Assembly: GCA_965206595.1 (NCBI GenBank)
Contig: OZ242214.1
Span: 4,000,001-4,064,000, forward strand
Length of the DNA stretch: 64,000 bases
Direction: 5' to 3'
DNA from: Candidatus Latescibacterota bacterium
Lineage (GTDB): Bacteria > Latescibacterota > UBA2968 > UBA8231
Shown here: piece by piece, positions 10,915 through 62,760 of the stretch
How the letters are laid out: each line of letters opens with the position of its first letter
Position numbering within the stretch: position 1 is the stretch's first letter
The notes under the pieces: model-generated
Databases searched by the model: none
Seen by the model: the letters and a program-made list of their open reading frames with translations, nothing else
Told to the model about the DNA's origin: nothing
Program-made: the position numbers and the translations under genes

Positions 10915-11053
10915 CGACACCAGCTGCTGCCCGGCCCGTGGCGGTCGCTGCGGATCGTGCCCGCCCTGGCCGTCCCGCCTTCATCGGGCACCCTGCCGGC
11001 TCCATGCGTAGGTTGTCAGCGAACTGCGAAGGCACCGATATCGGTGCCTTCGC
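10915..11053 (+). repeat. Internally deleted IS91/ISCR-like 3'-end relic (copy A), ending in a 28-bp perfect palindrome
   Basis: gcggtcgctgcggatcgtgcccgccctg and tcagcgaactgc...accgatatcggtgcctt match the 22407-22787 copy. Palindrome GCGAAGGCACCGAT|ATCGGTGCCTTCGC at 11026-11053. Confidence 0.7.
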
Positions 11054-11064
11054 GCGAAGGAGGA

Positions 11065-12168
11065 ATGATGGGAAAACTGGAACGGGACGGGCGCGTCATC
11101 GTCGCCGAAGGGGGGATTTGCCCCTCCCTGGAACGCCTGAGCAACGGCGACCTGCTGGTGGCATATCGGGACGACACCCAAAGCATGACGTGCGTGAGCG
11201 TGACGCGCTCCACCGACTGCGGCCGGACGTGGCGCAAGGAGCACACCTTCGCCTACGGCGCCTCGGCGGAGCGGGCGGACGAACAGTTCTACGGCCATCA
11301 CGGCATGGCGCAACTCGCCGACGGCACCATCCTGCTGCCCTACAACGTCTACGGAACCAGCTACAGCGGCGTCTACAACCGCACCGTGTGCGTGCGCAAG
11401 TCGGTGGATCAGGGGCACACCTGGTCGGAGCCGATCGTGGTGGTTCCCGGCCCGGGCCCGGCTGCCGGCTGGGCCGCGGCGGTTTCCTACGGCAAGATCC
11501 GCACCCTCCACGACGGCACCGTGATCCTGCCGGTCATCGGCCGCCGCGAGGGCGACCGCTTCGGCCGCCACGGGTTCCTGACCTCCAGCGACGGCGGCGA
11601 AACCTGGGAGCGCTACGTCACCGCCGCCTGCGACCGCTACTCGGGCGACGAAGCCGATTTCCTGCAGCTTCCGAGCGGCCGCATTCTGTGCGTGAACCGC
11701 GATCCCTCCAACACCCACGGGCACGGGGTCGGCCCGCTGTTCTGCACCTGGAGCGACGACGGCGGAGCCACCTGGAGCAGCCACGAAATGGTGGGCTGGT
11801 CGGACCCGCGCTACGGCCACTCCCCGGCGCTGTTTCTCACCAGGACCGGCACCGTGGTCTGCGGCTACCGGCACGTGGCCGAGATGGACCACCTGCATAT
11901 CGGCAGCGTGGCGTTCTGTTACGTCAAGGAGGAGGGGCTGGACTGGAGCGGCGAGACCCACATCTACGGCGGCCCCATGTCCCTGTCGTTCCTGATGCAG
12001 TTCGACGCCATGGGGATGGGCTACCCCAGCTTCGCCTACGCCGACGACGAGCGCATCCTGGTGGTGCACCACACCCAGCCGCCGCCGGCGGTCGGGAAGC
12101 GAGATATCGAGGGGGTGTTCTACGTGGAGCGGGACGAGGAGCCGGCCTGGCGCGGCGACGTGAGCTGA
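11065..12168 (+). CDS. Sialidase-family (BNR/Asp-box repeat) protein
   Basis: Four Asp-boxes: STDCGRTW, SVDQGHTW, SSDGGETW, SDDGGATW. Also GYPS motif and GGAGG RBS. Confidence 0.85.
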   Translation: MMGKLERDGRVIVAEGGICPSLERLSNGDLLVAYRDDTQSMTCVSVTRSTDCGRTWRKEHTFAYGASAERADEQFYGHHGMAQLADGTILLPYNVYGTSYSGVYNRTVCVRKSVDQGHTWSEPIVVVPGPGPAAGWAAAVSYGKIRTLHDGTVILPVIGRREGDRFGRHGFLTSSDGGETWERYVTAACDRYSGDEADFLQLPSGRILCVNRDPSNTHGHGVGPLFCTWSDDGGATWSSHEMVGWSDPRYGHSPALFLTRTGTVVCGYRHVAEMDHLHIGSVAFCYVKEEGLDWSGETHIYGGPMSLSFLMQFDAMGMGYPSFAYADDERILVVHHTQPPPAVGKRDIEGVFYVERDEEPAWRGDVS

Positions 12169-12286
12169 GGCCGCTTGGGCCGGGTTTCGACGGGCTGTCG
12201 TTGCCGGGCCCCCTGTGTTTCAGGAGACACCATGGTATCCTGAGAACACGGGGGGCCGCAGCTCATCTGGAAGAGAACCGCCGGGA

Positions 12287-14485
<2,199 letters not shown>

Positions 14486-14885
14486 TTAACGGGGTTCTCG
14501 TTTCCGGACAAGGGATTCCGGCTCGGGAAATGGCGCAGGTTGGGGGGCACCACCCTTCGGCTGTAACGGCGGTACGGAGGACGGGTAGGGGTGAGGTGGG
14601 CATGGCGTCGGGGGCCCTCCTCGATTCGAGCTGCTCCGCCTGCGAAAATGCCCTGGGGTGGACGGCCCTGCTGGCCCGGGTGCTTTTTCGCGGACCTCAG
14701 CGGATGTCCGGCCACTGACCGAGTGAAGACAGTCTTCGCCGCGCCCTGGAGATGTTCCCCCAGGGCACGGTCCGCAACGCCGCCGAAAAAGCCTGTGGGG
14801 CCACCAAGAGGGGCCACCCCGCCCCTTGACCCCTGCCACAGTGGCAATTACGTACCCGTAACCAACCTCGATGGAGGTAAATACC

Positions 14886-15255: not shown

Positions 15256-16611
15256 GTGAACGACGATGTATTGCTGAGGTTCCTACGCAAGGGACTAATC
15301 GACGTAGGAGGCGATGACGACAAGCTCGGCCACTTGAGGCAAACGGCAGCCGATCTGGCCGGAATCCTCGAAAAGAGCCCGGCCAAGGCTTCGGCGTTCG
15401 CTCTTGTGGCGTTCGATCCTGATGTGCCGCCCAATGACCCGACCATCGCTGAGGCGGAAGAAGCACTACGCAAACGTTGGGAGACCTACGTCAATACATT
15501 TGCCGACACGCCAGTTGCGGTGTTTCGAGCCATGCTGTTGGATGCAGTGATCAAAGCCTGCGAGAAAAACGACACGGTGGCCGCGGCATTCGTTGCATCC
15601 GCGCGAAACGTGCTTCCGTTCATGGAGGTTGGCGAAGAGCGGGAAATCTGGGCTGACGTCGTCGCTGAAATCGAGAGGAAAGTGGAGGAGCGTGCTGAGA
15701 GGGAATGGGCAACACCTGAGTCGATTTCCGTGCCGGATATCAAGTTTGAGTCTGCCTCTGAGGTCGATATTCGTATTGTATCGAAAAAGACAAAGGCATC
15801 GAGCCTCAAGCCAAAGTTTGAGGCAGCTGCAGGACCTCACTCCATTAATCCTGAGGGAATACAGGGAGACACCGAAGGAAATCAGTACATGCCGCATGGC
15901 AATCCATATGAGTGGGTCTACCAGTTTGGCACGCTGATGGCTGAGGCTGTTGGAGATGCGATAAATCGGGCGGTTGGAAGTCTGTCTGTCGAAGGGCTCG
16001 ACCTGCCCGAATTTTCCCAAGACATAACGAACGTGATGTCCGAGCACCTCACGACCACATTGCAAGCCGTCAGCAGCGCCACGACCGGACTTCAGCGGCG
16101 TACGAATTTGCTGTGGTGGAAGGAGGCACTGTTTTCCCCGAGCGCTCGGAAGAGCTATCGCGAAATGTTGACATTCGACGCGGCGATGCTGATGGCTTTC
16201 GACATGCACCGAAATATCCCGACCTTCTCACCCGCGAGCGTCGCCGCGTTCCTGCGGGAGACGGTCATTGCGTTGCCAACGATGGATCAGGACGAGAAGG
16301 TTGCGATCAGGGAATTGGTAGAGAAGGCCCGCGATACCAGCATTCTGGAGGAGCTGAGAACGGAGGTAGGCAAACTGGTCGCCGCTCCTGCGGGTCGCAG
16401 CTCGATTCTCGGATTGATAGGGCATTCGGAGGCTGTGCCGCGAATCGACGACGGCACGTTTCGGGACTTCGTCGGGGTCAAGCCCGACACAATGCTCACC
16501 TTGCCGGATTGGTCGGTATGGATATTTCGCGAGCTTCAGGCGACTCGGGCCATTGCGGAAGCCTCCGCTCCCAAGCGGCGGACGGCTAGGGAGCGGAGGG
16601 CTGGGAAATAA
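15256..16611 (+). CDS. GTPase-associated system all-helical protein (GASH-like)
   Basis: AGGAGG RBS plus GTG start, predominantly helical-looking sequence, LLWWKEALFSPS...SYR motif, first gene of a double-GTPase operon. Confidence 0.75.
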   Translation: MNDDVLLRFLRKGLIDVGGDDDKLGHLRQTAADLAGILEKSPAKASAFALVAFDPDVPPNDPTIAEAEEALRKRWETYVNTFADTPVAVFRAMLLDAVIKACEKNDTVAAAFVASARNVLPFMEVGEEREIWADVVAEIERKVEERAEREWATPESISVPDIKFESASEVDIRIVSKKTKASSLKPKFEAAAGPHSINPEGIQGDTEGNQYMPHGNPYEWVYQFGTLMAEAVGDAINRAVGSLSVEGLDLPEFSQDITNVMSEHLTTTLQAVSSATTGLQRRTNLLWWKEALFSPSARKSYREMLTFDAAMLMAFDMHRNIPTFSPASVAAFLRETVIALPTMDQDEKVAIRELVEKARDTSILEELRTEVGKLVAAPAGRSSILGLIGHSEAVPRIDDGTFRDFVGVKPDTMLTLPDWSVWIFRELQATRAIAEASAPKRRTARERRAGK

Positions 16612-16616
16612 ACGCC

Positions 16617-17567
16617 ATGGCGGAATGTCCCCGGGAGACATGTTGGCCGGATATGGGCTGTAGTCTGGGCCACCTCGACCTCTCGAAGTGTCCGGCGCTG
16701 AAAGCGGACCGCACGGAAAAGGAGGACGAGGAAGCGTTGACGGAAGCGGCGGCCATGCCCTGGTCGGGAGGCGCGCTCGGGCTTACAGACCTCGGTTTCG
16801 TCGCAGGTCGGAACAAGCCGATCGTGCTGGCGATCATAGGACCGCATAAGGCGGGCAAGACCACGTTACTGGGAGCTTGGTATCTGTTGCTCGGAAAAGG
16901 TTTCCGACTGGACGACAAGCTGCGATTCGCAGGTTCCTGCTCGCTCGGCGGATGGGAGGTTGTTGCAAGCTCGCTACGGTGGGAGCCGGGTTCAATTCCT
17001 CCCGCGTTCCCACCGCACACGACCAGTAGCAATACACGCATCCCGGGATTGCTCCACTTGGCGTTCAGGCACGGGCAGGATCATCGCAGGGACTATGTGA
17101 TGACGGATGCGCCCGGCGAATGGTTCCAGAAATGGGCGATCAAGAGCGATGCGCCAGAGGCGGAAGGCGCGCGATGGGCTGCCGAACACGCCGACGCGTT
17201 CCTGTTGGTAGCGGATCGCGAAGCCTTGGCGGGAGAGGAAAGGGGCGCCGCCCGCAGCGGAATTCAACTGCTCGCGCGACGCTTGGCGGATGAGCTTAAA
17301 GGGAGGCCCGTCGCCCTTGTCTGGACGAAAGCGGATGTTTCGATCACGAGCAAGATGGAAGAAGCAGTGCGAAGCGCGGTGCGGAGGGTGATCCCGGAAG
17401 CCGTCGAGTTTGAGGTCAGCATCATGCCCGAGTCCGACAGTGCTGAGAACGAGCAGGGGTTCCTGAACCTTCTTGGCTGGGCTCTGGATGTCCGCCGACC
17501 GGCCGTACAGCTCCCTGAACCGGCGAGCGGCAATCTCGATCCCGTGTTCAGATTTGGTGCGAGATAG
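16617..17567 (+). CDS. TRAFAC-clade GTPase (double-GTPase system) with N-terminal Cys/His cluster
   Basis: G1 GPHKAGKTT, G3 DAPGE, G4 WTKAD; N-terminus CPRETC...CSLGH...C. Confidence 0.85.
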   Translation: MAECPRETCWPDMGCSLGHLDLSKCPALKADRTEKEDEEALTEAAAMPWSGGALGLTDLGFVAGRNKPIVLAIIGPHKAGKTTLLGAWYLLLGKGFRLDDKLRFAGSCSLGGWEVVASSLRWEPGSIPPAFPPHTTSSNTRIPGLLHLAFRHGQDHRRDYVMTDAPGEWFQKWAIKSDAPEAEGARWAAEHADAFLLVADREALAGEERGAARSGIQLLARRLADELKGRPVALVWTKADVSITSKMEEAVRSAVRRVIPEAVEFEVSIMPESDSAENEQGFLNLLGWALDVRRPAVQLPEPASGNLDPVFRFGAR

Positions 17568-17570
17568 ACA

Positions 17571-18404
17571 ATGGGAGTGCCCGACAGGTCGATCCTGGTG
17601 ATCGGGGAATCCGGCGTTGGCAAGTCTCACTACGGAGGCCAGCTGCTGAAGCGGCTGATGAAAGAGGACGGGCGCATCCGAATGGCGGGAGCAGCGGCCA
17701 ATCTGGAGCCCTTCGAAGCCGTTATGGCCAGACTGGATGCTGGGGTGTCGGCGGACCATACTTCCACTGCGGTCTACCATGAGAGCCGCTGGCCGGTTAT
17801 CGATGAAGAGGGACGCAAGGCCAACTTGATCTGGCCCGATTACGGCGGCGAGCAAATCAAGAACATCATCGACAAGAGGCGTCTTCCGCATGCCTGGCTG
17901 AACCGGATCGCCCAGTCCTCGGCTTGGCTCCTGTTGATTCGTCTGCAAAGGGCTCGGGTCGAGGATGACATCTTCTCCCGTCCTCTGACATCGCTGGAGG
18001 AGAGCAGCAGAGAGCCTGGGGAGGCGCCGTTGTCCGATCAGGCCCGCTTGATCGAGTTGCTGCAAATGCTGGCATATGTCCACTCCAAATCAGATAGCCG
18101 TAGGGACCGGCTACCGTGCCTCGTTGTTCTCCTGACATGTTGGGACGAGATGAAGAGTCCAGGGAGGCCGGTCGATGTCTTGCAGGAACGCCTCCCGATG
18201 TTTGGCGAATTCGTCGATAGCAATTGGGAGGATTCTTCGGTACTCGGACTCTCTGCTCTGGAACGAGCGCTGGACAAAGAGGTACCCGACGAGAGCTATA
18301 TCGCTCAAGGCTCGGAACAGTTTGGCTACGTGATTCTGGAGGACGGCAGTCGCTCCACCGATTTGACGCTGCCGATCCGGAAGCTTCTCGCCGAACCGGC
18401 GTGA
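17571..18404 (+). CDS. Second TRAFAC-clade GTPase (double-GTPase system)
   Basis: G1 GESGVGKS, G3 DYGGE, variant G4 LTCWD; starts 3 bp after the first GTPase. Confidence 0.85.
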   Translation: MGVPDRSILVIGESGVGKSHYGGQLLKRLMKEDGRIRMAGAAANLEPFEAVMARLDAGVSADHTSTAVYHESRWPVIDEEGRKANLIWPDYGGEQIKNIIDKRRLPHAWLNRIAQSSAWLLLIRLQRARVEDDIFSRPLTSLEESSREPGEAPLSDQARLIELLQMLAYVHSKSDSRRDRLPCLVVLLTCWDEMKSPGRPVDVLQERLPMFGEFVDSNWEDSSVLGLSALERALDKEVPDESYIAQGSEQFGYVILEDGSRSTDLTLPIRKLLAEPA

Positions 18405-18426
18405 CACTGGCGTCGGAGTTCGGGCC

Positions 18427-20931
18427 ATGCAGGTAGAGCAAGCCTTGTATGGCGAGTGTCGGGGTGGACACTCCCTGCTGGTGTCGAGCGTTAACGACGC
18501 GGTGTCGACGGCCATCGTCCAGCGCCTTGATCTACCCGATACGGCACCGCCGGGTGTCGAGTGGTCGCCGTTCCTTCGTGGCTTTCCGTACGAAGATCGA
18601 TATGTGCTGTCGCGGACGTTCCGCGATACAGGTGCAACGCGGGGCGGAATGGTCTTCTCGCACGCTCTCCTCGCTCCCCTGGATGAAATGGGGGAAATGT
18701 CGGATCTGCGGCCTCTTCTGAATCTGCTCGCAGTTTCAGACCAGCAACGGCCGGATGCGGTTACGCTGCAACTCGATGGCATAGAAACGGGGCTTCCGCA
18801 TGCTGAGGACCTGACGGAGGCCGCAGAGGCGCTGGGGACGAAAGCACAACTGCCGGTTGTGCGGCTTGGCCATGTGGGGTTTGATGACCTTGTCGTCGCT
18901 TTGTGGGCGCACCTGTCACCGCAAATCCGCCGAGGGTTCGCTTTTCGCCTCAGTTTCGACCCGCGTGATCTTGTGGAAACGCCGATGCCGGCGCTGGTAT
19001 GTACGCCCCGCGGGATGGAGGCGCGCTGGTCTGAGTATCCAGTGATCCGTTCGCCGGAGCGCCGGGAACCGGGCTCGCTCGCCGGGGCGATACTGAGCGG
19101 TCACGGAAAGGCAGCTCCCCTCGTCGAATTCATGCACGACGTGGGCGTCAAGCCGGCGACGTTTTCTGAGCTGCGATTGGTAGAGCAAGCCTATTGCCTC
19201 GACATTGGCGAGCCGACGTTTGAGCGATGTGTCGGAACCGTGAGGCTGATCGGGAAGCTGTCACCCGCTGCAGATGAGGGCGAAGAGGGGAAGAACGCTC
19301 TTGTCCGACGGTTGTGTGATCAACTGTCGGCAGCCAGCGCTGAAGATATTCTGCGGGTGCGGAACCTCGAGCTTTACGCTTTCCCCTCTCCGAACCGGGT
19401 GTGGAAGGCGCTCGAGGGATGGGTGGCCAAGAACAGCTTTTCCCCGGACCAGGATGTGGAAATGCTGTCCGTGTTTGAGGACGCCACCGCTGGCACCAAT
19501 GCTGTCCATGAGTGGGGAACCGCGGTACTGGACGGGTTGGCGGTCGCGACGGGCTCGCGCAGGACCTCCTTTCCCAAAGCCTTCTGGCGCTGGTTTCAGA
19601 CTCAACCCGAAATCGTAACCGCCGTGTTCCGCCATGTCCCCGTGGAAGCCGGCGTGGAGGAACGGTTGGCGAGGGCAACGCCGCGCAATCTCGATGAAGC
19701 GGCGGCGAAGAGACTCGCGACGGACGCTTTGTCTCGCGGATGGCTCTGTCTGCACGGGGCGGTGCTGGCGGCCATTGTCTCAACGTCGGATGCGGCGCGG
19801 CGCCAGGTCGCGGTCGATACCGATCTATCGTTCGTCGAAGGTCTCCGGTGGGCTCTTCGACACGCGAAGCCGGCAGAGGTCGTCAAGTGTGCGCTGGAGA
19901 TTGATGACCCGCGCCTGCCACGGCTTGCCGGTGAAGCTGTTGCCAAGGCACCAAGGCTATTGTCCAAGGTCAATCTCACGGCGATCAAGGCGCAGGCGAT
20001 TTGGCGCGAAGCTCTAACCATCGATCCTGAGACTTGGCGGGGCCCAGCCGATCCGCAGGTCGCGTTTCGTTCGATTCTCGATCATCGGTTGAGCGGCGGC
20101 GAGACGGATACTTCGCTGATTGAACGACTGTCGGATACACCCGTCGCAGATCTCGGAGGCTATCCGCGGCGGGTAGAGATTTGGTCGCGCATTGGTGGCG
20201 CGGCACTCCAAAAGCTACTGGCGAGAACCGCCAAAGGGTGGCTCGGGCAAGCAGCCAAGGTCGGAGTTCCGTTTGTCCCCGAACGGGAACTGCAAATCGC
20301 GATCTTGGAGAGCGAGGAGCTTGAGCAGACGCTGTACGCACTAATCCCCAACGGTGTTGGCGGCCTCGTTCGAATTGTGGCTGCTCTGAATCGGTACGAC
20401 GAGCAACGGTTTCTACGCTTGTTGGAAAAAGTGCTATCGCGCACAGCCTTGGTGGCAACTGAGGACGCCGAGGTTGTTGGACGTCTGGTGCTGGAACGTA
20501 GATGGGTGGACGTCACTGCCGAGCTGGTCGATCAATATCGAAGCGGACGGCGGGATCTTGAACCCGCGCTCCGAGCCTGTGGTGACATTCTCGGTTTCTG
20601 GGATCGTTTCGTTCTTGGGGTAGCACCGGTGTCGGAGGGGGAGAAGTGGAAGGGCTTCGAGGAGATGGCTGTCCAGCTCTACCCGGGCGGTCCGGACGAC
20701 CGCGAATTATGGGAGCGTGCGGGTGGAGACAACGCCGACTTGCCAACGCGGGATGATGGGCGGTCAAGATGGCGCAGAGCGGTGCGAGAGATGCGAAATG
20801 GAAGGGGACCGACTGCCCCGGAGCTGTTGGCCGCAATGATGGAGGATTTCCAAAACAATGAACGGATCCGCCATCTCGCCGGGGATCCTGTATTTAGTGG
20901 AGGCGTCCGGGATGATTTCCAAGATGAATGA
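18427..20931 (+). CDS. GAP1-N1 domain protein with C-terminal effector-associated domain (EAD1-like)
   Basis: N-terminus EQALYGE..GGHSLL..S...D....RGGMVFSHAL; C-terminus LYPGGPDDRELWERAGGD...GRSRW is homologous to the tail of the next gene. Confidence 0.78.
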   Translation: MQVEQALYGECRGGHSLLVSSVNDAVSTAIVQRLDLPDTAPPGVEWSPFLRGFPYEDRYVLSRTFRDTGATRGGMVFSHALLAPLDEMGEMSDLRPLLNLLAVSDQQRPDAVTLQLDGIETGLPHAEDLTEAAEALGTKAQLPVVRLGHVGFDDLVVALWAHLSPQIRRGFAFRLSFDPRDLVETPMPALVCTPRGMEARWSEYPVIRSPERREPGSLAGAILSGHGKAAPLVEFMHDVGVKPATFSELRLVEQAYCLDIGEPTFERCVGTVRLIGKLSPAADEGEEGKNALVRRLCDQLSAASAEDILRVRNLELYAFPSPNRVWKALEGWVAKNSFSPDQDVEMLSVFEDATAGTNAVHEWGTAVLDGLAVATGSRRTSFPKAFWRWFQTQPEIVTAVFRHVPVEAGVEERLARATPRNLDEAAAKRLATDALSRGWLCLHGAVLAAIVSTSDAARRQVAVDTDLSFVEGLRWALRHAKPAEVVKCALEIDDPRLPRLAGEAVAKAPRLLSKVNLTAIKAQAIWREALTIDPETWRGPADPQVAFRSILDHRLSGGETDTSLIERLSDTPVADLGGYPRRVEIWSRIGGAALQKLLARTAKGWLGQAAKVGVPFVPERELQIAILESEELEQTLYALIPNGVGGLVRIVAALNRYDEQRFLRLLEKVLSRTALVATEDAEVVGRLVLERRWVDVTAELVDQYRSGRRDLEPALRACGDILGFWDRFVLGVAPVSEGEKWKGFEEMAVQLYPGGPDDRELWERAGGDNADLPTRDDGRSRWRRAVREMRNGRGPTAPELLAAMMEDFQNNERIRHLAGDPVFSGGVRDDFQDE

Positions 20932-22079
20932 ACCGCGCCGAACTGGAGGCGGGGGGCGTGGATGAAGCCTTGGAAAGGGCGGCCGAGGTGACAGGGGATT
21001 TTGCCACCGGACATGCCATCGTCATCGGCGTCGCGAATTACAGGAACGTGCCGGGGCTGCCCGAAGCGGTGCTGAATGACGCGCGGGACGTGGCCGCGGT
21101 CCTGCGATCCAACGCCTACTGTGGATATGAGCCACGTGACGTGCACGTGTTGCTCGACAGCGACGCCACGCTGGAGCGGATCAGGGCAGCCTTGGCTACC
21201 GTGGCCAAGACCAGCCGACCGGAGGACACGGTCGTCATCTTCTTCTCCGGGCATGGTGCCCTTCTCGGTGATCCCGTCGACCCCGAAAGCGCGCTACTGC
21301 CGGTCGAATGCGATGGACGGACACTGGATAGCACGAGCTTGTCCGAGGCGGAATTCTCTTCCGCACTTCGGGGATTCGCCGCTAAACGTCTGCTTGTCCT
21401 GATCGACGCTTGCCACTCCGCAGGCGCCGGGAGCTTCAAGGGCGGAGGAGCGGAGGAGTTACGGTCTCTCGGCTATAGCGAAAAGTCTCTTGGACGCCTG
21501 GCCCAGGGCGTCGGCCGCGTCCTTATCGCGTCTTCCCGGGCCAGCGAAGTATCCTGGGTACTGCCAAAGGCTCGGAACAGCGTGTTCACCTCCCATCTTT
21601 TGGATGCGCTGCGGGGCCAGGCGCGCACGAGCGGGGACGGGCTGATTCGGGTGTTCGAGGTCTTCAATCATGTCTCGGAGATGGTGCAGCGCGAGATGCC
21701 GGGGCGTCAGCATCCGGTCTTCAAGGCGAGCGACCTTGAGGACAATTTCCCTGTCGCGCTCGACCGGGGCGGGGTGAAATCGGACGCTACGGCGTCGGAT
21801 GCAGTAGGGGAGTCCGATGTCTGGAGCCAAATGGCAGAGATGATGCCGGGTCTTTATCCAGCAGGGCCGATGGATCAGGAAGTCTGGGCGCGTGCGGGCG
21901 GTGATCCGTCTCGCTTGCATCTGCAGGAGACAGGGCGGGTCGCCTGGTTCAAGGCTTTGCGTATGCTCCGTCAAGGTGGTGGAGGGGCAGGAATTCGCAA
22001 AGGAAGCCTGATTGAAACTGCGCTTGAGGACTACCCCCACCATCCGGTTTTGCGTGCACTACTGCGTGCACTACTGTGA
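20928..22079 (+). CDS. Caspase-family (peptidase C14) effector with C-terminal EAD1-like domain
   Basis: Catalytic dyad motifs FFSGHG and LIDACHS; tail LYPAGPMDQEVWARAGGD...GRVAW; ATGA overlap with the upstream gene. Confidence 0.88.
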   Translation: MNRAELEAGGVDEALERAAEVTGDFATGHAIVIGVANYRNVPGLPEAVLNDARDVAAVLRSNAYCGYEPRDVHVLLDSDATLERIRAALATVAKTSRPEDTVVIFFSGHGALLGDPVDPESALLPVECDGRTLDSTSLSEAEFSSALRGFAAKRLLVLIDACHSAGAGSFKGGGAEELRSLGYSEKSLGRLAQGVGRVLIASSRASEVSWVLPKARNSVFTSHLLDALRGQARTSGDGLIRVFEVFNHVSEMVQREMPGRQHPVFKASDLEDNFPVALDRGGVKSDATASDAVGESDVWSQMAEMMPGLYPAGPMDQEVWARAGGDPSRLHLQETGRVAWFKALRMLRQGGGGAGIRKGSLIETALEDYPHHPVLRALLRALL

Positions 22080-22282
22080 GGTGAGGCCTGTCTTTTCTGA
22101 CACGCACCCGCAAGGTCCGCCGCGCGTCCCTCCGGCCCCATGCAACGGGGGCATGGATATCTTGCCAGAAGGAATTTTCTTTCCTGACACCGGAGTGTTA
22201 ACCGACGCGGACCGAAGAACCTGGGAGATGGCTCCAGCAAGGGAACGGCCACTGCATGGTGAGAAACGCATGGCCGTCATCG

Positions 22283-22354
22283 CTAGTGTTCTCGGTTAAA
22301 GAGACGGCATTGAATTTTGGACCTTTACCAGCTTGACATCGTCCCGGTTTCGAT
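22283..22354 (-). mobile_element. IS630 terminal relic (~70 bp)
   Basis: ctagtgttctcggttaaagagacggcattgaattttggacctttaccagcttgacatcgtcccggtttcgat is a diverged copy of 29684-29754. Confidence 0.75.
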
Positions 22355-22406
22355 GTCGCCCCACCACCACCGAAAAGGATCCCATTGGTATGAAAGGGCA
22401 ATCAAT

Positions 22407-22787
22407 CGACCTCAGCGGCTGTCCGGCCTGTGGCGGTCGCCTGCGGATCGTGGCCGCCCTGACCGATCCGGCCTCGATCCGGACCTGTCTGGAGGGGGTA
22501 GGGCTGCCGGCGGTGCCCCCGCCGAGGGCCCCGCCTCAGCCGCAGTTCAAGTTCGCCGTTTGACCTCCTCCGCATTGGCTCCCTGCGCGGTGAGCGGTAC
22601 GGAGGAGGGCGCCCTCAAGTACCGGGTTGACCCCTGAAAGGCGCCAAAATCCTTTACAACGGTAGTCGGAGCAGTCCCGAACGATTCGGTGCGAGGACAA
22701 GCAATTCACCAGGGACCCTGCTGGACCCTCGCGTACGATTTCAGCGAACTGCATAGTACCGATATCGGTGCCTTATTTTTCCTATAC
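22407..22787 (+). mobile_element. IS91/ISCR-like relic: transposase C-terminus plus oriIS-like end (copy C, most complete)
   Basis: Encodes CPACGGRLRIVAALTDPASIRTCLEGVGLP..PPPRAPP*, typical of Y2 HUH transposase C-termini. About 220 bp later it ends in TTCCTATAC, like the ISCR oriIS end as I recall it. Confidence 0.75.
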
Positions 22788-22924
22788 TCTTCACCTTCCC
22801 GCATCTCGGCAAGCTGCTCGTGGGCGAGTTGACAAGCGCCGACGTGCTCCACCCGAATTCCTGAATGCACCGACCGCTGTGTGCCCGAAGTCTGGCATCC
22901 GAATAAGAAGGGGCTGAAACCGGC

Positions 22925-24607
22925 ATGACGAACGAAGTAATCACCACCGACTTGGCCGACGCCGAAATCCTCTGGAAGTCGGCCGACACCCTGCGCGGCC
23001 AGATCGATGCTGCCGAGTACAAACACGTCGTACTCGGCCTGCTCTTCCTGAAGTACATTTCCGACTCCTTTGAGGCACGGCGCGACGAGCTCAAGGGGGA
23101 ACTGGAAGCCGACGACATCAGCGGGCCTCAGATCGAAAGCCTGCTGGAGAACCGCGACGAGTACACTGCCGAGCGGATCTTCTGGGTGCCGCCCGAGGCA
23201 CGCTGGCAGAACCTCCAGAACCAGGCCGCGCGGCCGGACATCGCCACGCTGATCGACGACGCCATCCTCACCATCGAGCGCGACAACCCGAACCTCAAGG
23301 GCAAGCTGCCGCGCGACTACGCCCGTCGCGGCATCGCGCCGGAGAAGATGAAGGGGTTGATCGACCTGATCGCCGACATCGGCTTCAGGGGCGATCGCGC
23401 CAAAGCCCGCGACACGCTCGGCCGCGTCTACGAGTACTTCCTGGGCAAGTTCGCCCAGGCCGAGGGCAAGCTCGGCGGCGAGTTCTTCACGCCGCGCTGC
23501 ATCGTGCGGCTGCTGGTCGAGATGCTCGAGCCGTACGAGGGCCGCGTCTTCGACCCCTGCTGCGGCTCGGCCGGCATGTTCGTGCAGTCCGAGCGCTTCG
23601 TGGAAGCCCACGACGGGCAGAAGACCGACATCTCGATCTTCGGTCAGGAGTCCAATCCCACCACCTGGCGGCTGGCGCACATGAACCTGGCTATCCGCGG
23701 CATCGAGGCCAACCTTGGCTCTCAGCCCGCCGACAGCTTCCTGCGCAACCTGCACCCCGACCTCAAAGCCGACTACATCCTCGCCAATCCGCCGTTCAAC
23801 ATCTCGGACTGGTCGGGCAAGCTTCTGGCCGACGACGTGCGCTGGCGCCACGGTACGCCACCCGTCGGCAATGCCAACTACGCCTGGATCCAGCACTTCA
23901 TCCACCACCTGGCCCCGCCTGACGGGCATGGCGGCGGAGTCGCCGGCTTCGTCATGGCCAACGGCTCGCTCTCCACCGGCTCCGGCGGTGAGGGCGAAAT
24001 TCGCCAGCGCATCGTCGAGGCCGATCAGGTGGATTGCATCGTCGCGCTGCCAGCGCAGCTCTTCCTCACCACCGGCATCCCCGCCTGCCTCTGGTTCCTC
24101 ACGCGCGACAAGACCGGCAGGAACCTCAAGAAAGGCGGGCGTGACCGCAGGGGCGAGACGCTCTTCATCGACGCCCGCAAGCTCGGCACGATGCAGACCC
24201 GTACCCTCCGCGTGCTCACCGGCGGCGACGACGGCGAAAGCATGTTGGCCGATGGCATGGGCGACCCCAATTTCGATTCCGACCTCGGCCGCATCGTCTA
24301 CACCTTCCGCCAGTGGCGGGGCGAGCCCGCGCCGGGTTGGTGGGTCGAAGCGCAGCATGGCAAATGGGCGTACAGCGACATTCCCGGCTTCTGCAAGGCG
24401 GATACGATCGCGGGAATCGGCAAGCACGGCTTCGTACTCACCCCCGGCCGCTACGTTGGCGCCGAGGAGCAGGCCGACGACGGCGAACCGTTCGCGAAGA
24501 AGTACCCGCGGCTGCTGGGGGAGTTGGAGGTGTGTTTTCGGGAAGGGGAGCGACTGATGGCTGTGGCCCGTGAACGGGTGCTAAGGGTTGAGAGTGATGC
24601 CAACTAG
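22925..24607 (+). CDS. hsdM: Type I restriction-modification methyltransferase subunit
   Basis: [39 protein letters not shown]. Confidence 0.95.
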
Positions 24608-29600: not shown

Positions 29601-29683
29601 ACGGCTACCCTCCGGATCTGGCCGAGGACGCGACGCAGCTCGTTTTGCGACAGGCGGAGCTATCAACGGAGAACTCGGAGTAG
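26624..29683 (+). CDS. hsdR: Type I restriction endonuclease subunit R
   Basis: RPD...NGLP...IELK nuclease motif, [45 protein letters not shown]. Confidence 0.95.
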
Positions 29684-30560: not shown

Positions 30561-30583
30561 TGTCGCAGCAGCTGGCGGAGCGC

Positions 30584-30693
30584 GGGGTAGGGCTGCCGGC
30601 GATGCCCCCGCCGAGGGCCCCGCCTGAGCCGCTGTTCGATTTCGCCGCCTGACCTCCTCCGCGATGGGCTCCCGGCACCGGTAATTTCCTAAC
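30584..30693 (+). repeat. IS91/ISCR-like relic (copy D)
   Basis: ggggtagggctgccggcgatgcccccgccgagggccccgcct...ttcgccgcctgacctcctccgc matches 22495-22575 and ends in ATTTCCTAAC. Confidence 0.8.
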
Positions 30694-42275: not shown

Positions 42276-42279
42276 TTCT

Positions 42280-48135: not shown

Positions 48136-49641
48136 TCAGATGTAGAATCGAAAGGTGGGTTGCCGGTTAGTAACGGTCGGATTGCTCACAAGTATCTCTC
48201 CCACTGCATCAGAGAACTTCACAGTAACCGGCTGGGTGTCGCCAGCATTACAGGCGTTGTAATTGAGCTTCGTCAGACCGAGAATATCCCGAGCCACATC
48301 AACAATATCCGCCTCTCCATGCTGAATATCGATCTGGAGAGGCACCGGCGTTTCCCATCCATCGTAGGTTCCGAGACGCGGTTTGAACCCGGACCCGAAC
48401 AAATATCCCCGAGTTCCTGAATGCCTCCACAAGGTGCCGCGAAGCACCGGCCACGGTCTGTCCGGCCGGTACAGTCGCGGACCATCGTGCCAAGGACGCA
48501 CGCGAATGCCGACGACCTTCAGTCCCTTCGGGGCAGCAGACCTGTATCCTTTGAATTCCTCCGCACTGATGTCAGATCTCGAGTGGAGAAAGACTTCGGT
48601 CAAGCTCTTCCCATGTAGCTGAGTATATGTATCAAGTGCGCCCTTCAGTAGATCGTGTGCCGCTTTGGCTGTAAGACGAAACTGCTTCTCTATTGGAGAA
48701 TACCAGGGTCCATAGTTCCCCAAGAATACCACCCCATCCCCATCGTCAAGGAACATTTGGGCGGCACACGCGGCACTCTTCGGCCCGTCCCTGGCATCGG
48801 TCCTACGGAACGCAAGCCCGACATAGCACACGCCTTCTCTGGCAGTAGCCAGCTTCCATGGCTTCCCACCTCCCTTGTAGTACATCGTGGTCGACAAATT
48901 CCACATGCGATCTGACAACGGAGTCAGCTGCCGTGCCCCAAAAGGATTCTCGTCGTTGAGTCTCAAAGCCGATTCACGCACGATTTGAATCGGAACCCCA
49001 TAAACCATCGTCCGTGCTTTGATCTGCCTCCGGAAATCCAGCGACAGTTCGTACTGCTCTGGCGGGAACCTCGAAAAAGCATCGAGCTGACCCCTCCTAC
49101 GCGACTCTCGTCTCCTCTTGGAAATGACCTCCCCGGTCGGCTGTAGCACACGAGACATCGTCCGGCAAGTTTGATGTATTTCGTCAGGCACCACGCAGAC
49201 CATGAGGCTTACATGCTCCTCAATCTTCTGCAAATGCTCAAACGTCGAGAGGTACTGGTTCACGGCGGCAAAAACCCGCTCGTGGGGATCATGGCGATTA
49301 GCCACATCACTCAGTTTGTGGCTATCGAGTGCCTGTTGCCAAACAGGTTCGGTTCGCCAATCACACGAGAAGGCTGCCTCAAAGCCCGGGTACGGTGGCC
49401 ACAAGCGATGGCGGTCATCCGGGGCATCTGTCCATGGGCGGTGCATCGCACTCGACCACGCGGAAAACAGCTCCATACCTGCATGTGTGCCAACCACACC
49501 GTAGGATAGAGCTGCTGGATGACCGGGAGCGTCCGCGTCGTACGGGCCGAACAGAGACAGCCCATCACGCGGATGGGCGACCGCTTGACCGTACCGGAAT
49601 TCCAGTGCTGGCTCGTCCAGAATCACTATCTCCCTCAACAT
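48136..49641 (-). CDS. Short prokaryotic Argonaute (MID-PIWI, catalytically inactive), SPARTA-type
   Basis: EP.LEF...PRDGL.LFGP, FRRQIKA, PIQIVRES, YYK.GGKPWKL, LTKLNYN, PVTVKF...VGEIL, C-terminal FYI. Catalytic Asp positions read VGLAF and LHSRS. 501 aa. Confidence 0.93.
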   Translation of the reverse strand: MLREIVILDEPALEFRYGQAVAHPRDGLSLFGPYDADAPGHPAALSYGVVGTHAGMELFSAWSSAMHRPWTDAPDDRHRLWPPYPGFEAAFSCDWRTEPVWQQALDSHKLSDVANRHDPHERVFAAVNQYLSTFEHLQKIEEHVSLMVCVVPDEIHQTCRTMSRVLQPTGEVISKRRRESRRRGQLDAFSRFPPEQYELSLDFRRQIKARTMVYGVPIQIVRESALRLNDENPFGARQLTPLSDRMWNLSTTMYYKGGGKPWKLATAREGVCYVGLAFRRTDARDGPKSAACAAQMFLDDGDGVVFLGNYGPWYSPIEKQFRLTAKAAHDLLKGALDTYTQLHGKSLTEVFLHSRSDISAEEFKGYRSAAPKGLKVVGIRVRPWHDGPRLYRPDRPWPVLRGTLWRHSGTRGYLFGSGFKPRLGTYDGWETPVPLQIDIQHGEADIVDVARDILGLTKLNYNACNAGDTQPVTVKFSDAVGEILVSNPTVTNRQPTFRFYI

Positions 49642-49651
49642 CGGCACCCTA

Positions 49652-51052
49652 CTAATCTGCCTTGGCATCCTCGACCTCCGCGTCGTCCTCCCAATACCAC
49701 GCGGTGTACGCCTCATCGGGCTCGTCCACCAAATCGTCGTGGATACGAAGGGGAGCTTTCGAAACAATCGGCATGGCGCTGATGACGAGTTGCTGCTCTC
49801 CCTCCGGCCCGAAGCGGATATACAAATCCTCATCCGCCAGTAGCTGCGCTATACCGAGGGTTCTTGCGGCCCACTCTCTGTTGAACCATGTCTTGCATAG
49901 ATGTTTGCGGCGAGAGAGGATTCTCTGCTTCGTGAGCAGTGTGCCACTCGCATCTGTAAGGTAGACGCGATTCCTGAGCAACAGGACGAATGGGTCGATT
50001 GTGTCCGTCAGTACCGAAAACGATGGACTCAAGTGGTATCGGTATACCTCTCCCCCATCCCTGGTAGGATAGGTACGCTCCCCGACTCCGCTGAACCAGC
50101 TCCTCTTTCCATCGGGGAAGGTGAATGACACGCGGTCGTTACCTAAGAATCCCCGTGGGAGATACCACTGGCCCGTTTTCCTCGTGTTCCTCCTGTTCCT
50201 CCTCCCTCCCTCACGTCCGGGCTCCGCGGTGACGGAGTATTCCATTCCCGCATCCCTCAGAAGGGAGTCCAGACATCTATGAATCAGGCTAACCACCAGG
50301 TCACGCGTGTCAATTCCATCCACCTCCGCTGTGTCCTGCCAGGGAACTCTTCCCACACACTGAAATCGAGTACGTGCGCTCACGGCAGAAGGTGGGTCCT
50401 CAAACGCGAGTACACGGCGGCCGAACACATCCCGACAGGCCCACTCTCTCCGCAATGCGCGACGCTCGCCCCTGGAGAGATTGCTCTCAGCCTCGTACTT
50501 GTGAATGTATCGCGGCGTTTGCACAACCTCGAAGCAGTTGCTAATCAACTCCTCGGGTTCCTCGTCGACGGCGCTCGTTCCAACGATTGAGGCTATAGCA
50601 ACGCGGCGGCCGTTATCCAACACTCGTGGCGCACCGACTGACTGGAGTTTCTTGAGCAGGGCAGTGAGCCCCTCAGCCCAACTGGGGCAGAAGGGGATAT
50701 AGTTGATGGGTTGAAGATTCCAAGTGATTTGGTCCGGGCGGAGTCCTTCGGTATTCAGCGGGATTACAAAGTCCTCAATGCCCAACTGGCTTCCAATCGC
50801 GGTGCCCTTCAGCCACTCTCCCTGCGGATTCGGCTTTTTCATCGATGCCTGCGATAGAAGTGCAAGCATACGGAAAGTGCGTTGATTGATCGCTTCATCG
50901 ATGTCCGAAGGCCAGTTCTCCCCACCAAGTAGCTTCAGGCGATCGTACCATACAGCGTACCCTTCGGCGGCAAGTCGTCGGGCAAGCCAGTCGCACAGTG
51001 CCGACTGCTCGGTCGCGTAACTGATGAAGATGTGATCGCGTTCTTGTTTCAT
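49652..51052 (-). CDS. TIR-APAZ effector (SPARTA NADase)
   Basis: TIR motifs IFISYA...WL..RL..EGY.VW.D...L.GGE.W and Glu in PQGEW; APAZ-like C-terminus RR...K.WFNREW; acidic tail; 10 bp upstream of the short pAgo. Confidence 0.9.
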   Translation of the reverse strand: MKQERDHIFISYATEQSALCDWLARRLAAEGYAVWYDRLKLLGGENWPSDIDEAINQRTFRMLALLSQASMKKPNPQGEWLKGTAIGSQLGIEDFVIPLNTEGLRPDQITWNLQPINYIPFCPSWAEGLTALLKKLQSVGAPRVLDNGRRVAIASIVGTSAVDEEPEELISNCFEVVQTPRYIHKYEAESNLSRGERRALRREWACRDVFGRRVLAFEDPPSAVSARTRFQCVGRVPWQDTAEVDGIDTRDLVVSLIHRCLDSLLRDAGMEYSVTAEPGREGGRRNRRNTRKTGQWYLPRGFLGNDRVSFTFPDGKRSWFSGVGERTYPTRDGGEVYRYHLSPSFSVLTDTIDPFVLLLRNRVYLTDASGTLLTKQRILSRRKHLCKTWFNREWAARTLGIAQLLADEDLYIRFGPEGEQQLVISAMPIVSKAPLRIHDDLVDEPDEAYTAWYWEDDAEVEDAKAD

Positions 51053-51077
51053 ATCAGTCCCGCCAGCACCCCCACAG

Positions 51078-51449
51078 TCAAGCCAAGGCCTCAATCCTCA
51101 CCTCGCCACGCGCCACCACTTCCACTCTCAGGCTGTGCCTCTTGAGCAATCCCATTCCTACGAGGGGAGTAGTATCGGCCGCAGCCACTTCCACCGGCCG
51201 GTCCTGCCCGTTCCACAACACTGTCCCAATGTACTCGTCGAATACATGTAGACTGCCGTCGGCGATTAGTGCCTGACCACGACCTTTCCAGGACAGATCC
51301 AGCCTGCGGATCAAGGCTGTTGGAAGGGTGAGATAGCCAGTGAAGCCGGTATCGATGATGGCCTCGACTTCCCGTCCCTCCCTGTCAACGCCGAGAAGGG
51401 TAAGGCGGATGGTTGCCTCCAGATTCTCGTTTACTGCACCCTCAATCAT
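51078..51449 (-). CDS. Clan AA (retropepsin-like) aspartic protease
   Basis: AIIDTGF.G.L.LP, LIADG, PLVGMGLL. Confidence 0.88.
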   Translation of the reverse strand: MIEGAVNENLEATIRLTLLGVDREGREVEAIIDTGFTGYLTLPTALIRRLDLSWKGRGQALIADGSLHVFDEYIGTVLWNGQDRPVEVAAADTTPLVGMGLLKRHSLRVEVVARGEVRIEALA

Positions 51450-60021: not shown

Positions 60022-60087
60022 CGTAACCCTTACACACCTTCTCAGCGAACGGTATGGTACCGAAATAGGTGCAGTATTTTTCCTAAT
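60022..60087 (+). repeat. oriIS-like relic (copy G)
   Basis: tcagcgaacggtatggtaccgaaataggtgcagtatttttcctaat versus 22741 tcagcgaactgcatagtaccgatatcggtgccttatttttcctatac. Confidence 0.75.
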
Positions 60088-60353
60088 CGCGAGGTCGCCC
60101 GGTGACCCCGCACGATGTTTTAGAGGAATCTCGCGGGCAAGATGGGTGATAAGCAGTCGATGCGACATGAGTGCGCTTCTCAGGAAAGGCTTCGAGTGGC
60201 GGCCGGCAGAAGCGGCCAGGTCGGTGTCGGAGCGGCTGATCTCCGGCCCCTCGGGCGAGCGGTGAAATGGGGAGATGGAGGCATGAGCGGGCGTAGAGTT
60301 GGAGAGCTGGGTAGGTCGCGTTGCAGGGTCGCCGGTTGAGCGTTGGTGAGCGC

Positions 60354-61470
60354 ATGAAGTCGGAGGAATTCGAAGCCGGAGTCTGGATCGAGCGGCTCGC
60401 GCGAGCGCTTCCCGGGTTGTCAAAGACTCAGGGGCCGTTCCTGAAGGAATATTGGCAGCAAAATCCGCGCGTGAATGTCGTGGTCGACGGGCGGGACGAG
60501 ACGCCGTTTCCATTAGACGATCTGCGAATGCTCTATGCCCAGGCCGCTCACGGCTTCGGCGAGCATGCGTACTACGCGCCGCTGCGGGCGGGGATGGACC
60601 CGGTTCGCACCCTCCTGCGATCGCATCCCACGCTGTGGGGCGCCGTGGGTCCCCGCATCGACAACGACGATTTTTGGGTGCAGATCCATGGTCATGGCAG
60701 CCTGACGTCGCTCACGGACCTGATCGGGGGGCTGATGGCGCGCGCGGACGAACTGCCGGGGGACGGTTTCCACGAAGCCGCAGGAGAGTTACACGCCTTG
60801 CTCCACTCTGCCAGTGGCGGTAACTCCTCGGCTGAGCCGGGCGGTCTCGACATCGGATACGATGTGGTGCTGTTCCATGGCCTGTGCCTGGAAGAGGAAA
60901 TCGACATAGGAGGCGGGCTCACGATGCTGCCGTTCGAGCGGGCGCGGGCCTTCGTGGACGAAGAGGTGCTGAAGGACATGGCGCCGGACGTCGTCAGGTT
61001 TCGGGATTGGCGGCTGGTCGGGGCGGTGGTGAGGCCGTTCCAGTGGAGGCCGGTGTTCCGCCGGAGGGGCGACCTGACGGAGACGGATGCGGAACCGCCC
61101 GGACCGTTCGGGCCGGATGCGCTGGAGTTTCTGGAATTGCTGGCTGTGTCGCACCGAGTGCCGATCGTGTGTTTGGCGGTGGTTCGGGAGTGTCTGAGCC
61201 GGTCCGCTTGCCGGCTGCTCGGACAGGCGCACAATCACGGAGGGGTGCAATGGGGCCGTCCGGTCCATCGGTTCCATCCCTTTGCAAAACCCCCCGGGCC
61301 TCGGTCAGAGGTGGTCGCGGAAGCGAAAACGGCGTATGGCGAACGGAAGAGCCAGCGTTACGGGAAGCTGGCGCCGGTTGTGGCGCGGCTCGCCGAAGCG
61401 CTTGCGAGGGACGGACGGTTTTCGGCGGAAGACAAGATCCTGGACGTCGCCATCGCACTGGCCAGGCACT
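60354..61470 (+). pseudogene. ApeA/HEPN-like protein lacking its C-terminus
   Basis: Ends RLAEALAR...EDKILDVAIAL, then continues as low-quality sequence that reads through into the next gene. Confidence 0.5.
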
Positions 61471-61583
61471 CGGGAGCCGGGACCATTGGATCGAGCTCGT
61501 GGACCGCGAACAGCGAGAGGTCACGGCCGAAGACTTGGAACGCTGGGAGCATGAGGCGCCGCAGGCGTTCGAGTGGGGGTGAC

Positions 61584-62552
61584 ATGAACGTGAGACGCAA
61601 TGATGAATACCTGAGAGAGGCGGTCGCGGCGGCGGCGCGTGCTCGGGACGCGATGAAGCCGGTCTTTGACTTATGCCAGGGACTGCGACAGGCGATGCAG
61701 CCCTTTGCCGATCTGCAAGAGCAGATCGTGAAGATTCAGGCGCAAATCCGGAAATCGCACGAGCAGAACCTGGCGGTGGTGCGGGAAATCCAGGGCCATG
61801 CGCGGTTTACGAGCGCCGTTGCAAAGCTCGATCTTGGACCGTTGAAGGCCGTGGCGGAACAACTGGCAAATGATGTCCGCAGGGCGCAGGCGTTCGACAC
61901 AGCGGGATGGCTCCCCCACCACAGCACGCCGCTCGATCAGGTGGAGAAATGCGCTGGCGATAGCGACACGATTCACGCGCTTCTGTCCAGCTACTACAAG
62001 GAGCGGTGGCGCGAAGTGCGCCAGAACATTGAGACGCGGCTGACCGAGTACGGGCTGGACGAAGAAGCGAAGGAAACGTTTGGCGAGGCGCTAACGGCTC
62101 ACGAGACTGGTCTCTATCGCAGTGTCTGTCGCCTCTTGTTTCCGGAGATCGAGCGGGTTGCCCGCAAGGAACTGCACGGCGACAAGATGGAACGGATAAC
62201 CAGCCAGCATGTGCTGCGTAAGGTTGCGGGCTGCATCCCCATATCAGCGATGGAGCCCGGAGGCTTCCTCGGACTGAACCTGTTCGACCGGCTGTCGAAT
62301 CATCTCTACGAAACGGCGTACGACGAAGACGCCAGGCAACGTCTCGCGAGGGATCCGGTACCGAACCGGCATGCCGTAGTGCACGGTCTGGTAGTGTATT
62401 CGTCGATGCAGAACAGTCTGAACGCCATCTTCATGACGGATTACATCTTTCTGGTTATCAGCTTGTTGAAGGTGCTGGAGGACCCGCCGCGGAAAGCCAG
62501 GAAGGAGAGCGGGCGCGAGCCCGGTGAACCCGGGCTCCGATCGGAAGGGTAG
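61584..62552 (+). CDS. Helical protein with C-terminal HEPN-like RxxxxH motif
   Basis: GGGGGT RBS before ATG 61584; EAL.AH..GLY...LL.PEIE and PNRHAVVHG. Confidence 0.65.
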   Translation: MNVRRNDEYLREAVAAAARARDAMKPVFDLCQGLRQAMQPFADLQEQIVKIQAQIRKSHEQNLAVVREIQGHARFTSAVAKLDLGPLKAVAEQLANDVRRAQAFDTAGWLPHHSTPLDQVEKCAGDSDTIHALLSSYYKERWREVRQNIETRLTEYGLDEEAKETFGEALTAHETGLYRSVCRLLFPEIERVARKELHGDKMERITSQHVLRKVAGCIPISAMEPGGFLGLNLFDRLSNHLYETAYDEDARQRLARDPVPNRHAVVHGLVVYSSMQNSLNAIFMTDYIFLVISLLKVLEDPPRKARKESGREPGEPGLRSEG

Positions 62553-62760
62553 AGGACAGCGGCTTCGCCTACTGGACACCGACGTCAGGACGGACATTCC
62601 TTGCGTTCGACGCCGCCAAGTGGGAATTCGGGAGCTTCCCAGGGCCTCAAGCTGACAGGTTGAACATGCCTGTAGCGAAATCGGCTGGGTCAATCAACGT
62701 CGCATGGCCTTGCCGTGGGGTGAGGCGCGCACCTGAACTTCCTAACTCGCGGGTCCCTTC

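Follow-up and report, generated by a model that had tools for sequence, protein, structure and literature searches.

What are the short, related segments that recur between gene modules in a defence island of Candidatus Latescibacterota, and did they help to build it? The stretch analysed (assembly GCA_965206595.1, contig OZ242214.1, positions 4,000,001 to 4,064,000) is 64,000 nt long with a G+C content of 63% and is called the window here; all window coordinates refer to its full length. A first-pass annotation, made from the letters alone, had read the segments as origin ends (oriIS) of IS91/ISCR insertion sequences and had proposed that they acted as capture sites that assembled the island, loosely in the manner of integron cassette sites. 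The segments are almost certainly oriIS-end relics, derived from the 3' end of a transposase gene of the HUH Y2 type, of an IS91-family element common in Candidatus Latescibacterota. The best explanation for them, to which we give a probability of about 0.6 and every step of which we infer, is that they are directional by-products of one-ended rolling-circle transposition that piled up head to tail in flexible DNA. A defence-dedicated, integron-like capture platform is not supported.

A sensitive blastn search of 22250-22850 against the window, followed by a comparison of every junction with the window and combined with tblastn, returned seven related segments (relics A, a2, and B to F; Table 1), all on the plus strand, as the first-pass annotation had it. 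Matches to the relic B query were 36043-36368 for relic E (78% over 349 nt, E value 2e-73), 30584-30676 for relic C (89% over 93 nt, 2e-29), 34861-35051 for relic D (71% over 196 nt, 5e-19), 10915-10988 for relic A (83% over 76 nt, 1e-14, with a further stretch at 10980-11050, 79% over 71 nt), and 60042-60085 for relic F (84% over 44 nt, 1e-7). No minus-strand match was found by blastn in the window except the palindrome pairing with itself. Relic a2, previously listed as a weak trace at 14569-14722, is real: it gives two colinear translated matches, transposase residues 377-422 and then FADLSGCPA past a frameshift, and an extra 21-nt match (95%) at 14693-14713. The 13-mer at 62734 had been listed as a further weak trace and is not confirmed here; it aligns with no other segment of the family, the pattern TTCCTAWNC occurs twice in the window against 1.2 expected, which is chance level, and the 13-mer with up to two mismatches occurs twice against 0.5 expected, which is not separable from chance.

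The segments had been described as non-coding, which holds for their tails and not for the 5' part of the longer copies; that part is transposase coding sequence in each of them, at most the last ~100 codons. The stretch 22393-22563 translates to ...DLSGCPACGGRLRIVAALTDPASIRTCLEGVGLP...FKFAV*, and this peptide has 207 protein matches at E ≤ 1e-3. The full-length matches measure 475-480 aa (for example P0057, P0063, P0064, P0083, P0084, and P0112), contain PF14319 (zinc-binding) and PF04986 (Y2 transposase), and share a CxxCGG...FEFAA end; the relic B peptide is 81% identical to P0057 at the amino acid level. The window itself holds the C-terminal tail only, with neither Pfam domain. When six full-length transposases were compared with the window by tblastn, only C-terminal pieces were obtained, starting at residues ~377, 424, 431, ~443, and 455; the first 370 residues had no match anywhere in the window, and no intact IS91-type transposase was found there by tblastn, as had been claimed. 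Relic A (starting near residue 426) and relic F, which has tail sequence alone, were located through their blastn matches to relic B. The terIS or left end of two elements from related genomes (loci L005 and L007, described below) had no match in the window beyond one of 36 nt (E value 0.02). The window copies are relics, not complete IS91 elements. Relic B had no blastn match in a plasmid collection, and its peptide gave by tblastn only weak matches there, to ISCR-like transposases (best E value 2e-3), which served solely for reading an oriIS end. Database open reading frames (ORFs) of ~122 aa were considered as a separate small gene and rejected; they start at the internal Met354 of longer relics.

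In the IS91 family, transfer starts at oriIS, downstream of the transposase gene, and ends at terIS, and oriIS has subterminal palindromes and requires an adjacent CTTG or GTTC (PMC13181058). In the relics, the stop codon is followed by a tail of ~220 nt with a short palindrome, up to the end ...TTATTTTTCCTATAC. CCTATAC lies 198-266 nt past the stop in 10 ends from the window and L002-L007 and 55 nt past it in 2 copies with a common tail deletion; four further tail-only ends were read directly in L002 and L005. An ISCR-like element with both Pfam domains on an E. coli plasmid (L001) carries GAACTTCCTATAC 235 nt past its stop. The palindrome lies 8-15 nt ahead of the end. CCTATA is followed by CTTN in 11 of 13 CCTATAC-type ends, after which the flanks diverge; ends of the L004 type (n = 4) have C and then NNN instead. 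The C-terminal codons, the tail position, the palindrome, and the terminal motif all agree with the proposed IS91/ISCR oriIS identity. By position and motif the tail end is oriIS, and by analogy with IS91 it would have served as the origin.

The copies differ in state of preservation. A motif pair, TCAGCGAAC-N-CCGATATCGG, is kept in four of them (spacers of 10, 9, 3, and 9 nt; the 60-kb copy, relic F, reads CCGAAATAGG), and a TTCCTA or CTCCTA end also in four (at 22779, 30689, 36370, and 60080), despite internal deletions in the copies at 10915 (A) and 30584 (C), all as first described; the deletion in C removed the palindrome along with ~175 nt of tail. Relic B alone in the window has the canonical terminus, TTCCTATAC at 22779-22787, preceded by the palindrome at 22756-22771 and a T-run. 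The weak 36-nt match mentioned above falls at 14520-14555, flanking relic a2, and corresponds to the transposase start region, which hints that a2 may be an internal-deletion derivative. Pairwise identity among the window copies is 71-89% with no trend from left to right, and to judge by this divergence it shows that they are old and of differing ages.

A peptide scan of genome contigs located at least seven loci with the same family, all in metagenome-assembled genomes of Candidatus Latescibacterota, to which relic B is up to 89% identical in nucleotide sequence. Elements were mapped in L002-L007 by transposase pieces and three tail types, which gave 25 elements, or 32 with the window (these and later counts are for the loci listed). 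Six of the seven loci contain 2-6 elements within 10-20 kb, and in each of these six the cluster is co-oriented: of the 19 non-seed elements, 17 have the seed's orientation (P = 3.6e-4), the six other copies of the window are all oriented as the first, and pooled co-orientation is 23/25 (P = 1e-5). The terminus is kept in 22 of the 32 elements. Residues below 100 are held by two of the 32, a near-intact gene (L007, 2815-4314, with both PF14319 and PF04986) and an internal-deletion derivative (L005). The best sign of recent activity in the relic family comes from L004, where four oriIS-proximal tails of 214 nt (3251-3468, 6188-6401, 10330-10541, and 13580-13797, same strand) are 98-99.5% identical, 2.9-4.1 kb apart, and of three different 5' extents; copies as alike as these are absent from the window. 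Two of the tails have an identical left boundary, CGCGGTCAC..., and to the eye look like a discrete mini-element, and one follows directly on a relic of another subfamily that has lost its 3' end. Such near-identity means recent copying or gene conversion.

The preference for the 3' end extends to the protein database. With P0057 as query and only proteins of 30-260 aa searched, residues 421-476 were matched by 103 proteins (114 candidates) and residues 1-56 by 28 (28 candidates); once proteins whose longest contig was <3 kb, likely contig-end cuts, had been dropped (8 C-terminal and 10 N-terminal rows), the figures were 95 and 18. Because ORF calling should favour N-terminal fragments, which retain the native start codon, the C-terminal excess is real. 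These numbers bear directly on the idea that full-length insertions decayed by random deletion and that orientation and position are due to chance. Such decay would suit the differing ages and states of the copies, with their internal deletions and frameshifts, and islands do gather debris of mobile elements (the window also has a DDE transposase and an IS630-like pseudogene); but under it 5', middle, and 3' fragments should be equally frequent, and N-terminal residues occur in 0 of 7 window copies and in the two of 32 elements overall. With the 103-to-28 bias and the pooled co-orientation also against it, we consider random decay extremely improbable.

Might the tails instead have been kept for the sake of the neighbouring genes, as a terminator (palindrome plus T-run) or an outward promoter? 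The palindrome of relic B followed by CTTATTTTTC has a terminator-like score, relic A has a strong hairpin (12-bp stem, -17 kcal/mol, z -2.98), the oriIS region of ISCR1 has outward promoters that drive downstream genes (PMC6218425), and the next gene is co-oriented at 15 of 22 ends. That last count is not significant (P = 0.067), however; for B, E, F, and the copies in the loci, the hairpins fold no better than shuffled sequences (z -0.1 to -2.1), and two relics have no palindrome. A scan of 22300-23000 gave no sigma-70-like promoter, so that the stretch from relic B to hsdM has no promoter-like site, although promoters may differ in this phylum. A regulatory reason for the tails is very unlikely.

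One-ended rolling-circle transposition is established for IS91 itself, where termination fails in 1-50% of events so that adjacent DNA is carried along, and where the last 82 bp with the tetranucleotide are enough in cis while the transposase acts in trans (PMC13181058); a transposase acting in trans can move oriIS-bearing fragments together with adjacent DNA (PMC13181058, PMC6354349). Strand transfer would start at oriIS, run backward through the transposase gene, and stop imprecisely, needing in cis the oriIS end and its neighbouring tetranucleotide and in trans a transposase. Early or late termination would directly yield copies that keep oriIS without the remainder and could move again, and the opposite kind of fragment, with terIS only, would not be produced. 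Since the start is always oriIS and the stop is variable, one expects oriIS-keeping fragments with differing other ends, a near or complete lack of fragments with terIS alone, and foreign DNA whose left end falls at no fixed point. Clusters in head-to-tail order would follow if the junction of a resident oriIS with its tetranucleotide is a good insertion site, which is plausible; alternatively, one-ended transposition may have moved whole blocks together. The window relics would be old scars of this process, with a few cassettes perhaps brought in or reshuffled, and they would supply direct repeats for homologous recombination. By analogy with IS91, the relic family is possibly still mobilisable in trans.

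Half-genes beside the relics of the loci have the expected polarity. Every recognisably cut gene to the right of an oriIS end is co-oriented with the relic and lacks its 5' part (4/4), and in none of the four is the missing part on the relic's other side. These 3' halves (L003 4789-5061 and 10759-11043; L004 3478-4005 and 10561-11118) belong to genes for cytidylate kinase, acetolactate synthase small subunit, UxuA, and ketopantoate reductase and lie 0-190 nt from the oriIS terminus. They are left unexplained if the relics are strand-biased single insertions, that is, short copies, dead on arrival, that entered single-stranded DNA at the replication fork and survived only in dispensable regions such as islands. 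HUH transposases do use single strands, a bottom-strand circle is the active intermediate of IS91 (PMC13181058), and relics A and F, short inserts between divergently transcribed genes, need no cargo. Clusters ~40% of a contig apart nevertheless have the same orientation in two genomes (L003/L005 and L004/L007); the chance of falling on the same replichore is 0.16 and 0.20, figures that assume closed chromosomes with antipodal origin and terminus and are weak evidence. GC skew was of no help in telling the direction of replication, in the window or in the loci, as gene orientation dominates it. On balance, strand-biased insertion is quite improbable as the source of the relics.

Table 1. Coordinates of the relics and of neighbouring features in the 64,000-nt window.
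Feature	Position	Strand	Content
Relic A	10915-11053	+	Codons ~426-450 fused through an internal deletion to the palindrome region; no TTCCTA terminus
Relic a2	14563-14722	+	Frameshifted, degenerate transposase codons ~377-432; no tail
Relic B	22402-22787	+	Best-kept copy; in-frame codons 424-476 (22402-22563), 224-nt tail (22564-22787)
Relic C	30584-30695	+	Codons 455-476, first ~29 nt of tail, ~175-nt internal deletion, then TAATTTCCTAAC
Relic D	34816-35103	+	Degenerate codons ~414/443-476 and ~140 nt of tail; no palindrome or terminus
Relic E	36037-36378	+	Codons ~431-476 with indels; full tail including palindrome; variant terminus CTCCTAATA
Relic F	60026-60088	+	Last ~60 nt of tail alone: TCAGCGAAC..., decayed palindrome, TTTTTCCTAATC
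13-mer TGAACTTCCTAAC	62734-62746	+	Not confirmed as relic
GTPase-associated conflict system, left of B	15256-22079	+	GASH, DO-GTPase2, DO-GTPase1, GAP1-N1/EAD1, caspase/EAD1
Type I restriction-modification, B to C	22925-29683	+	hsdM, hsdS, Abi_C gene, hsdR
IS630-like transposase pseudogene	29684-30583	-	N-terminal HTH_32 domain, then out of frame
PDC-M23B/Hachiman-like helicase, C to D	30870-34147	+	Split: overlapping ORFs 30870-33581 and 33215-34147
Extra hmaC 3' ends	34170-34259, 34705-34794	-	88-91% identical to 36385-36465; the second is followed by relic D
PDC-S31 (DUF2971) gene, D to E	35151-35960	-	Start approximate
Hma system, E to F	36387-59935	-	hmaC 36387-39704, hmaB 44871-48116, hmaA 56300-59935

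Gene calls by Pfam and PADLOC scans, with the module count our own from both, show that the window contains a dense defence island. All seven relics are intergenic and at junctions, as the first-pass annotation stated, and five are within the island. Relic A lies between a divergent pair, a gene at 8490-~10849 (-) and a sialidase-like BNR gene from ~11068 (+), and relic a2 between a catalase-peroxidase gene and the GTPase-associated system, so two of the seven flank sialidase-like and catalase-peroxidase genes rather than defence genes. Relic E adjoins the 3' end of hmaC; relic F has the start of hmaA on one side and a gene of unknown kind at 60321 on the other. The Hma genes are spread over 23.5 kb, with a DUF433/DUF5615 pair (toxin-antitoxin-like), HEC-01, a HEPN/nucleotidyltransferase module, two PDC-M07-type ATPase sets, a short pAgo with TIR-APAZ (48136-51094), and an AAA ATPase among them; blastn and tblastn showed these inner junctions to be free of relics, repeats, and mobile-element traces. 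The claim that the relics mark cassette boundaries holds at 5 of the ~16 module junctions of the island and fails at ~11, including those inside the Hma operon.

Several side observations concern these modules. The GTPase-associated system looks complete, and PADLOC 2.0 scored its caspase only. The first ORF of the split PDC-M23B helicase covers profile positions 3-792 and the second positions 793-1060, and this is probably a frameshifted gene; a PDC-M23A partner for it was not seen. Left of the relics, 4976-6508 (-) encodes an intact-looking DDE transposase (DDE_Tnp_1_4, 510 aa) unrelated to IS91, beside which lies a PDC-S36-like ORF (6605-7102, -) whose match covers the first half of the profile only. 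A large secreted-type protein is encoded at 2337-4712 (-), with leucine-rich repeats, eleven ~126-nt YWTD/LDL-receptor class B repeats, and an FlgD_ig C-terminus; FlgD_ig-type C-terminal domains also occur on proteins in L002 and L003.

The genes between relics in the related loci are mostly metabolic (GFO/IDH/MocA oxidoreductases, PhyH, enolase-superfamily enzymes, and UxuA) and often 5'-cut. PADLOC scored 7 of 91 ORFs in the loci, and a clear defence cluster is present in one of the seven, L008, where type I restriction-modification and Septu lie several kb from a weak relic. The suggestion of a defence-specific role is not supported by these neighbours. As a separate observation, a DUF6527/ThiF-like E1/multi-ubiquitin set lies between two relics at L003 2440-4281 (-); seen by Pfam only and unscored by PADLOC 2.0, it is, to judge by its domains, a ubiquitin-like conflict system.

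We also weighed whether the co-oriented oriIS units formed a working capture platform that built the island. A Y2 transposase supplied in trans would start at one oriIS and stop at the next one upstream or beyond, and the segment between two of them, the cassette, would leave as a single-stranded circle and re-insert beside another oriIS. The relics do delimit whole systems (GTPase, type I restriction-modification, PDC-M23, PDC-S31, and Hma); arrays of 3-5 units at a spacing of ~2-4 kb recur in L003, L004, and L005; all four half-genes right of an oriIS fit a block with an arbitrary left end placed beside a resident oriIS; and the near-identical L004 tails fit recent copying. An IS91-bounded circle with catabolic genes is known (PMC5737581), and one-ended transposition can reach tens of kb (PMC13181058, PMC6354349). 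Against this, 11 of the ~16 island junctions are bare of relics, no cassette recurred, in the same or another context, across the window and loci, the relatives show no defence enrichment (the single locus named above), and most termini of the window copies have degenerated. No cassette is common to the window and a locus or to any two loci; the relic sequence alone is shared. Nor is the island an integron: the repeats are transposase-gene tails and not attC, there are no attI or attC-like sites, and a Pfam scan of 61 window ORFs (small ORFs covered in part) gave no integrase family. We think it unlikely that a capture platform built the island. A broader version, in which the oriIS-tail arrays of Latescibacterota are a working, integrase-free cassette system in which any block between two tails, defence or metabolic, is released as a single-stranded circle and settles beside a further tail, so that head-to-tail arrays are built and reshuffled, is distinctly doubtful.

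Remnants of other kinds were also found at the junctions. The IS630-like pseudogene, whose HTH_32 domain we take to be an IS630-type N-terminus, is cut on its 5' side by relic C, and its other end abuts the hsdR stop codon. Left of relic B, 22283-22359 is a 77-nt copy (86%) of the 3' end of this pseudogene, and both remnants begin at GCTAG beside the preceding cassette, directly left of relics B and C; they represent either one duplicated composite junction or two independent insertions. That these two stretches might supply the absent 5' half of the IS91 element, or its terIS, was considered and rejected, given the HTH_32 match and the opposite strand. The 3' end of hmaC is present as three direct copies, the two extra ends of Table 1 and 36385-36465, and a different HmaC may have left a longer C-terminal piece in the ORF at 34221-34595. 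This triplication suggests repeated replacement at an oriIS/hmaC junction.

Several observations weigh against one-ended transposition as the explanation of the relics, or narrow it. The C of CTTN is invariant, so that CTT may be element sequence and not target. Four of the seven window copies have damaged or missing termini, and because they are also old, present-day activity in the window is unlikely. The locus sample is small (at least seven) and was seeded with the C-terminal peptide. Of 25 defined 5' boundaries, 12 fall at residues 411-439, with no explanatory motif found, and many database ORFs derive from longer relics. Gene conversion among neighbouring repeats is an alternative source of the near-identity in L004, and the IS630 remnants and the triplicated hmaC end indicate that duplication and replacement also shaped the junctions.

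The identification gives the anonymous "junction" repeats of the island a name and a direction, and the gain is mainly one of correct annotation. What is new is a known kind of relic in a new phylum, beside defence genes; no report of IS91 relics structuring a defence island was found in the literature searched. In this little-studied phylum an IS91-type element has had a major part in shaping flexible DNA, and the bias toward oriIS fragments, the head-to-tail clusters, and the half-genes form the footprint expected of one-ended rolling-circle transposition, here outside plasmids and resistance islands. If the arrays are active, defence and metabolic cassettes would have an integrase-free means of moving. 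What does not generalise is the link to defence genes seen in the window.

Among known systems, IS801/CRR1 of Pseudomonas syringae virulence plasmids resembles the relics in having complete and truncated ori801 copies, 1-8 per plasmid, beside adaptive genes; its transposase acts in trans, one-ended transposition runs from ori801 to GAAC/CAAG, and the copies serve as recombination sites (PMC6354349). It differs in its proteobacterial host, plasmid location, virulence cargo, and experimentally shown activity. The window relics, by comparison, are located among defence and metabolic genes in Latescibacterota DNA that looks chromosomal; they are far shorter and older copies, known from sequence alone.

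5'-truncated ISCR copies are frequent in resistance islands. ISCR elements (ISCR1, ISCR2) share with the relics a Y2 transposase and an oriIS ~170-240 nt past the stop with an end of the ...TTCCTATAC type, as seen in L001, as well as a variable region of adaptive genes on the oriIS side and the regulatory potential of the oriIS region (PMC6218425). The ISCR-like plasmid copy is, however, only ~53-57% identical in protein over 30 residues (E value 4e-3), and ISCR elements carry resistance genes and, according to PMC6218425 and PMC9376610, have never been demonstrated to transpose. In cIS91sdpA of Sphingobium herbicidovorans, two IS91 copies with oriIS 167 bp past the coding sequence bound an 11-kb block that exists as a circle and for which arrival by one-ended transposition was proposed (PMC5737581); there the elements are full and the circle was detected by sequencing, whereas the window has relics only. 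Helitrons likewise transfer directionally by a rolling circle that ends imprecisely and in doing so picks up pieces of genes (PMC4778049), but they are eukaryotic and use a Rep-helicase fusion, so that the likeness is one of mechanism only. Integron arrays, finally, also consist of cassettes separated by short co-oriented repeats; the repeats of the window are transposon ends and not sites for a tyrosine recombinase.

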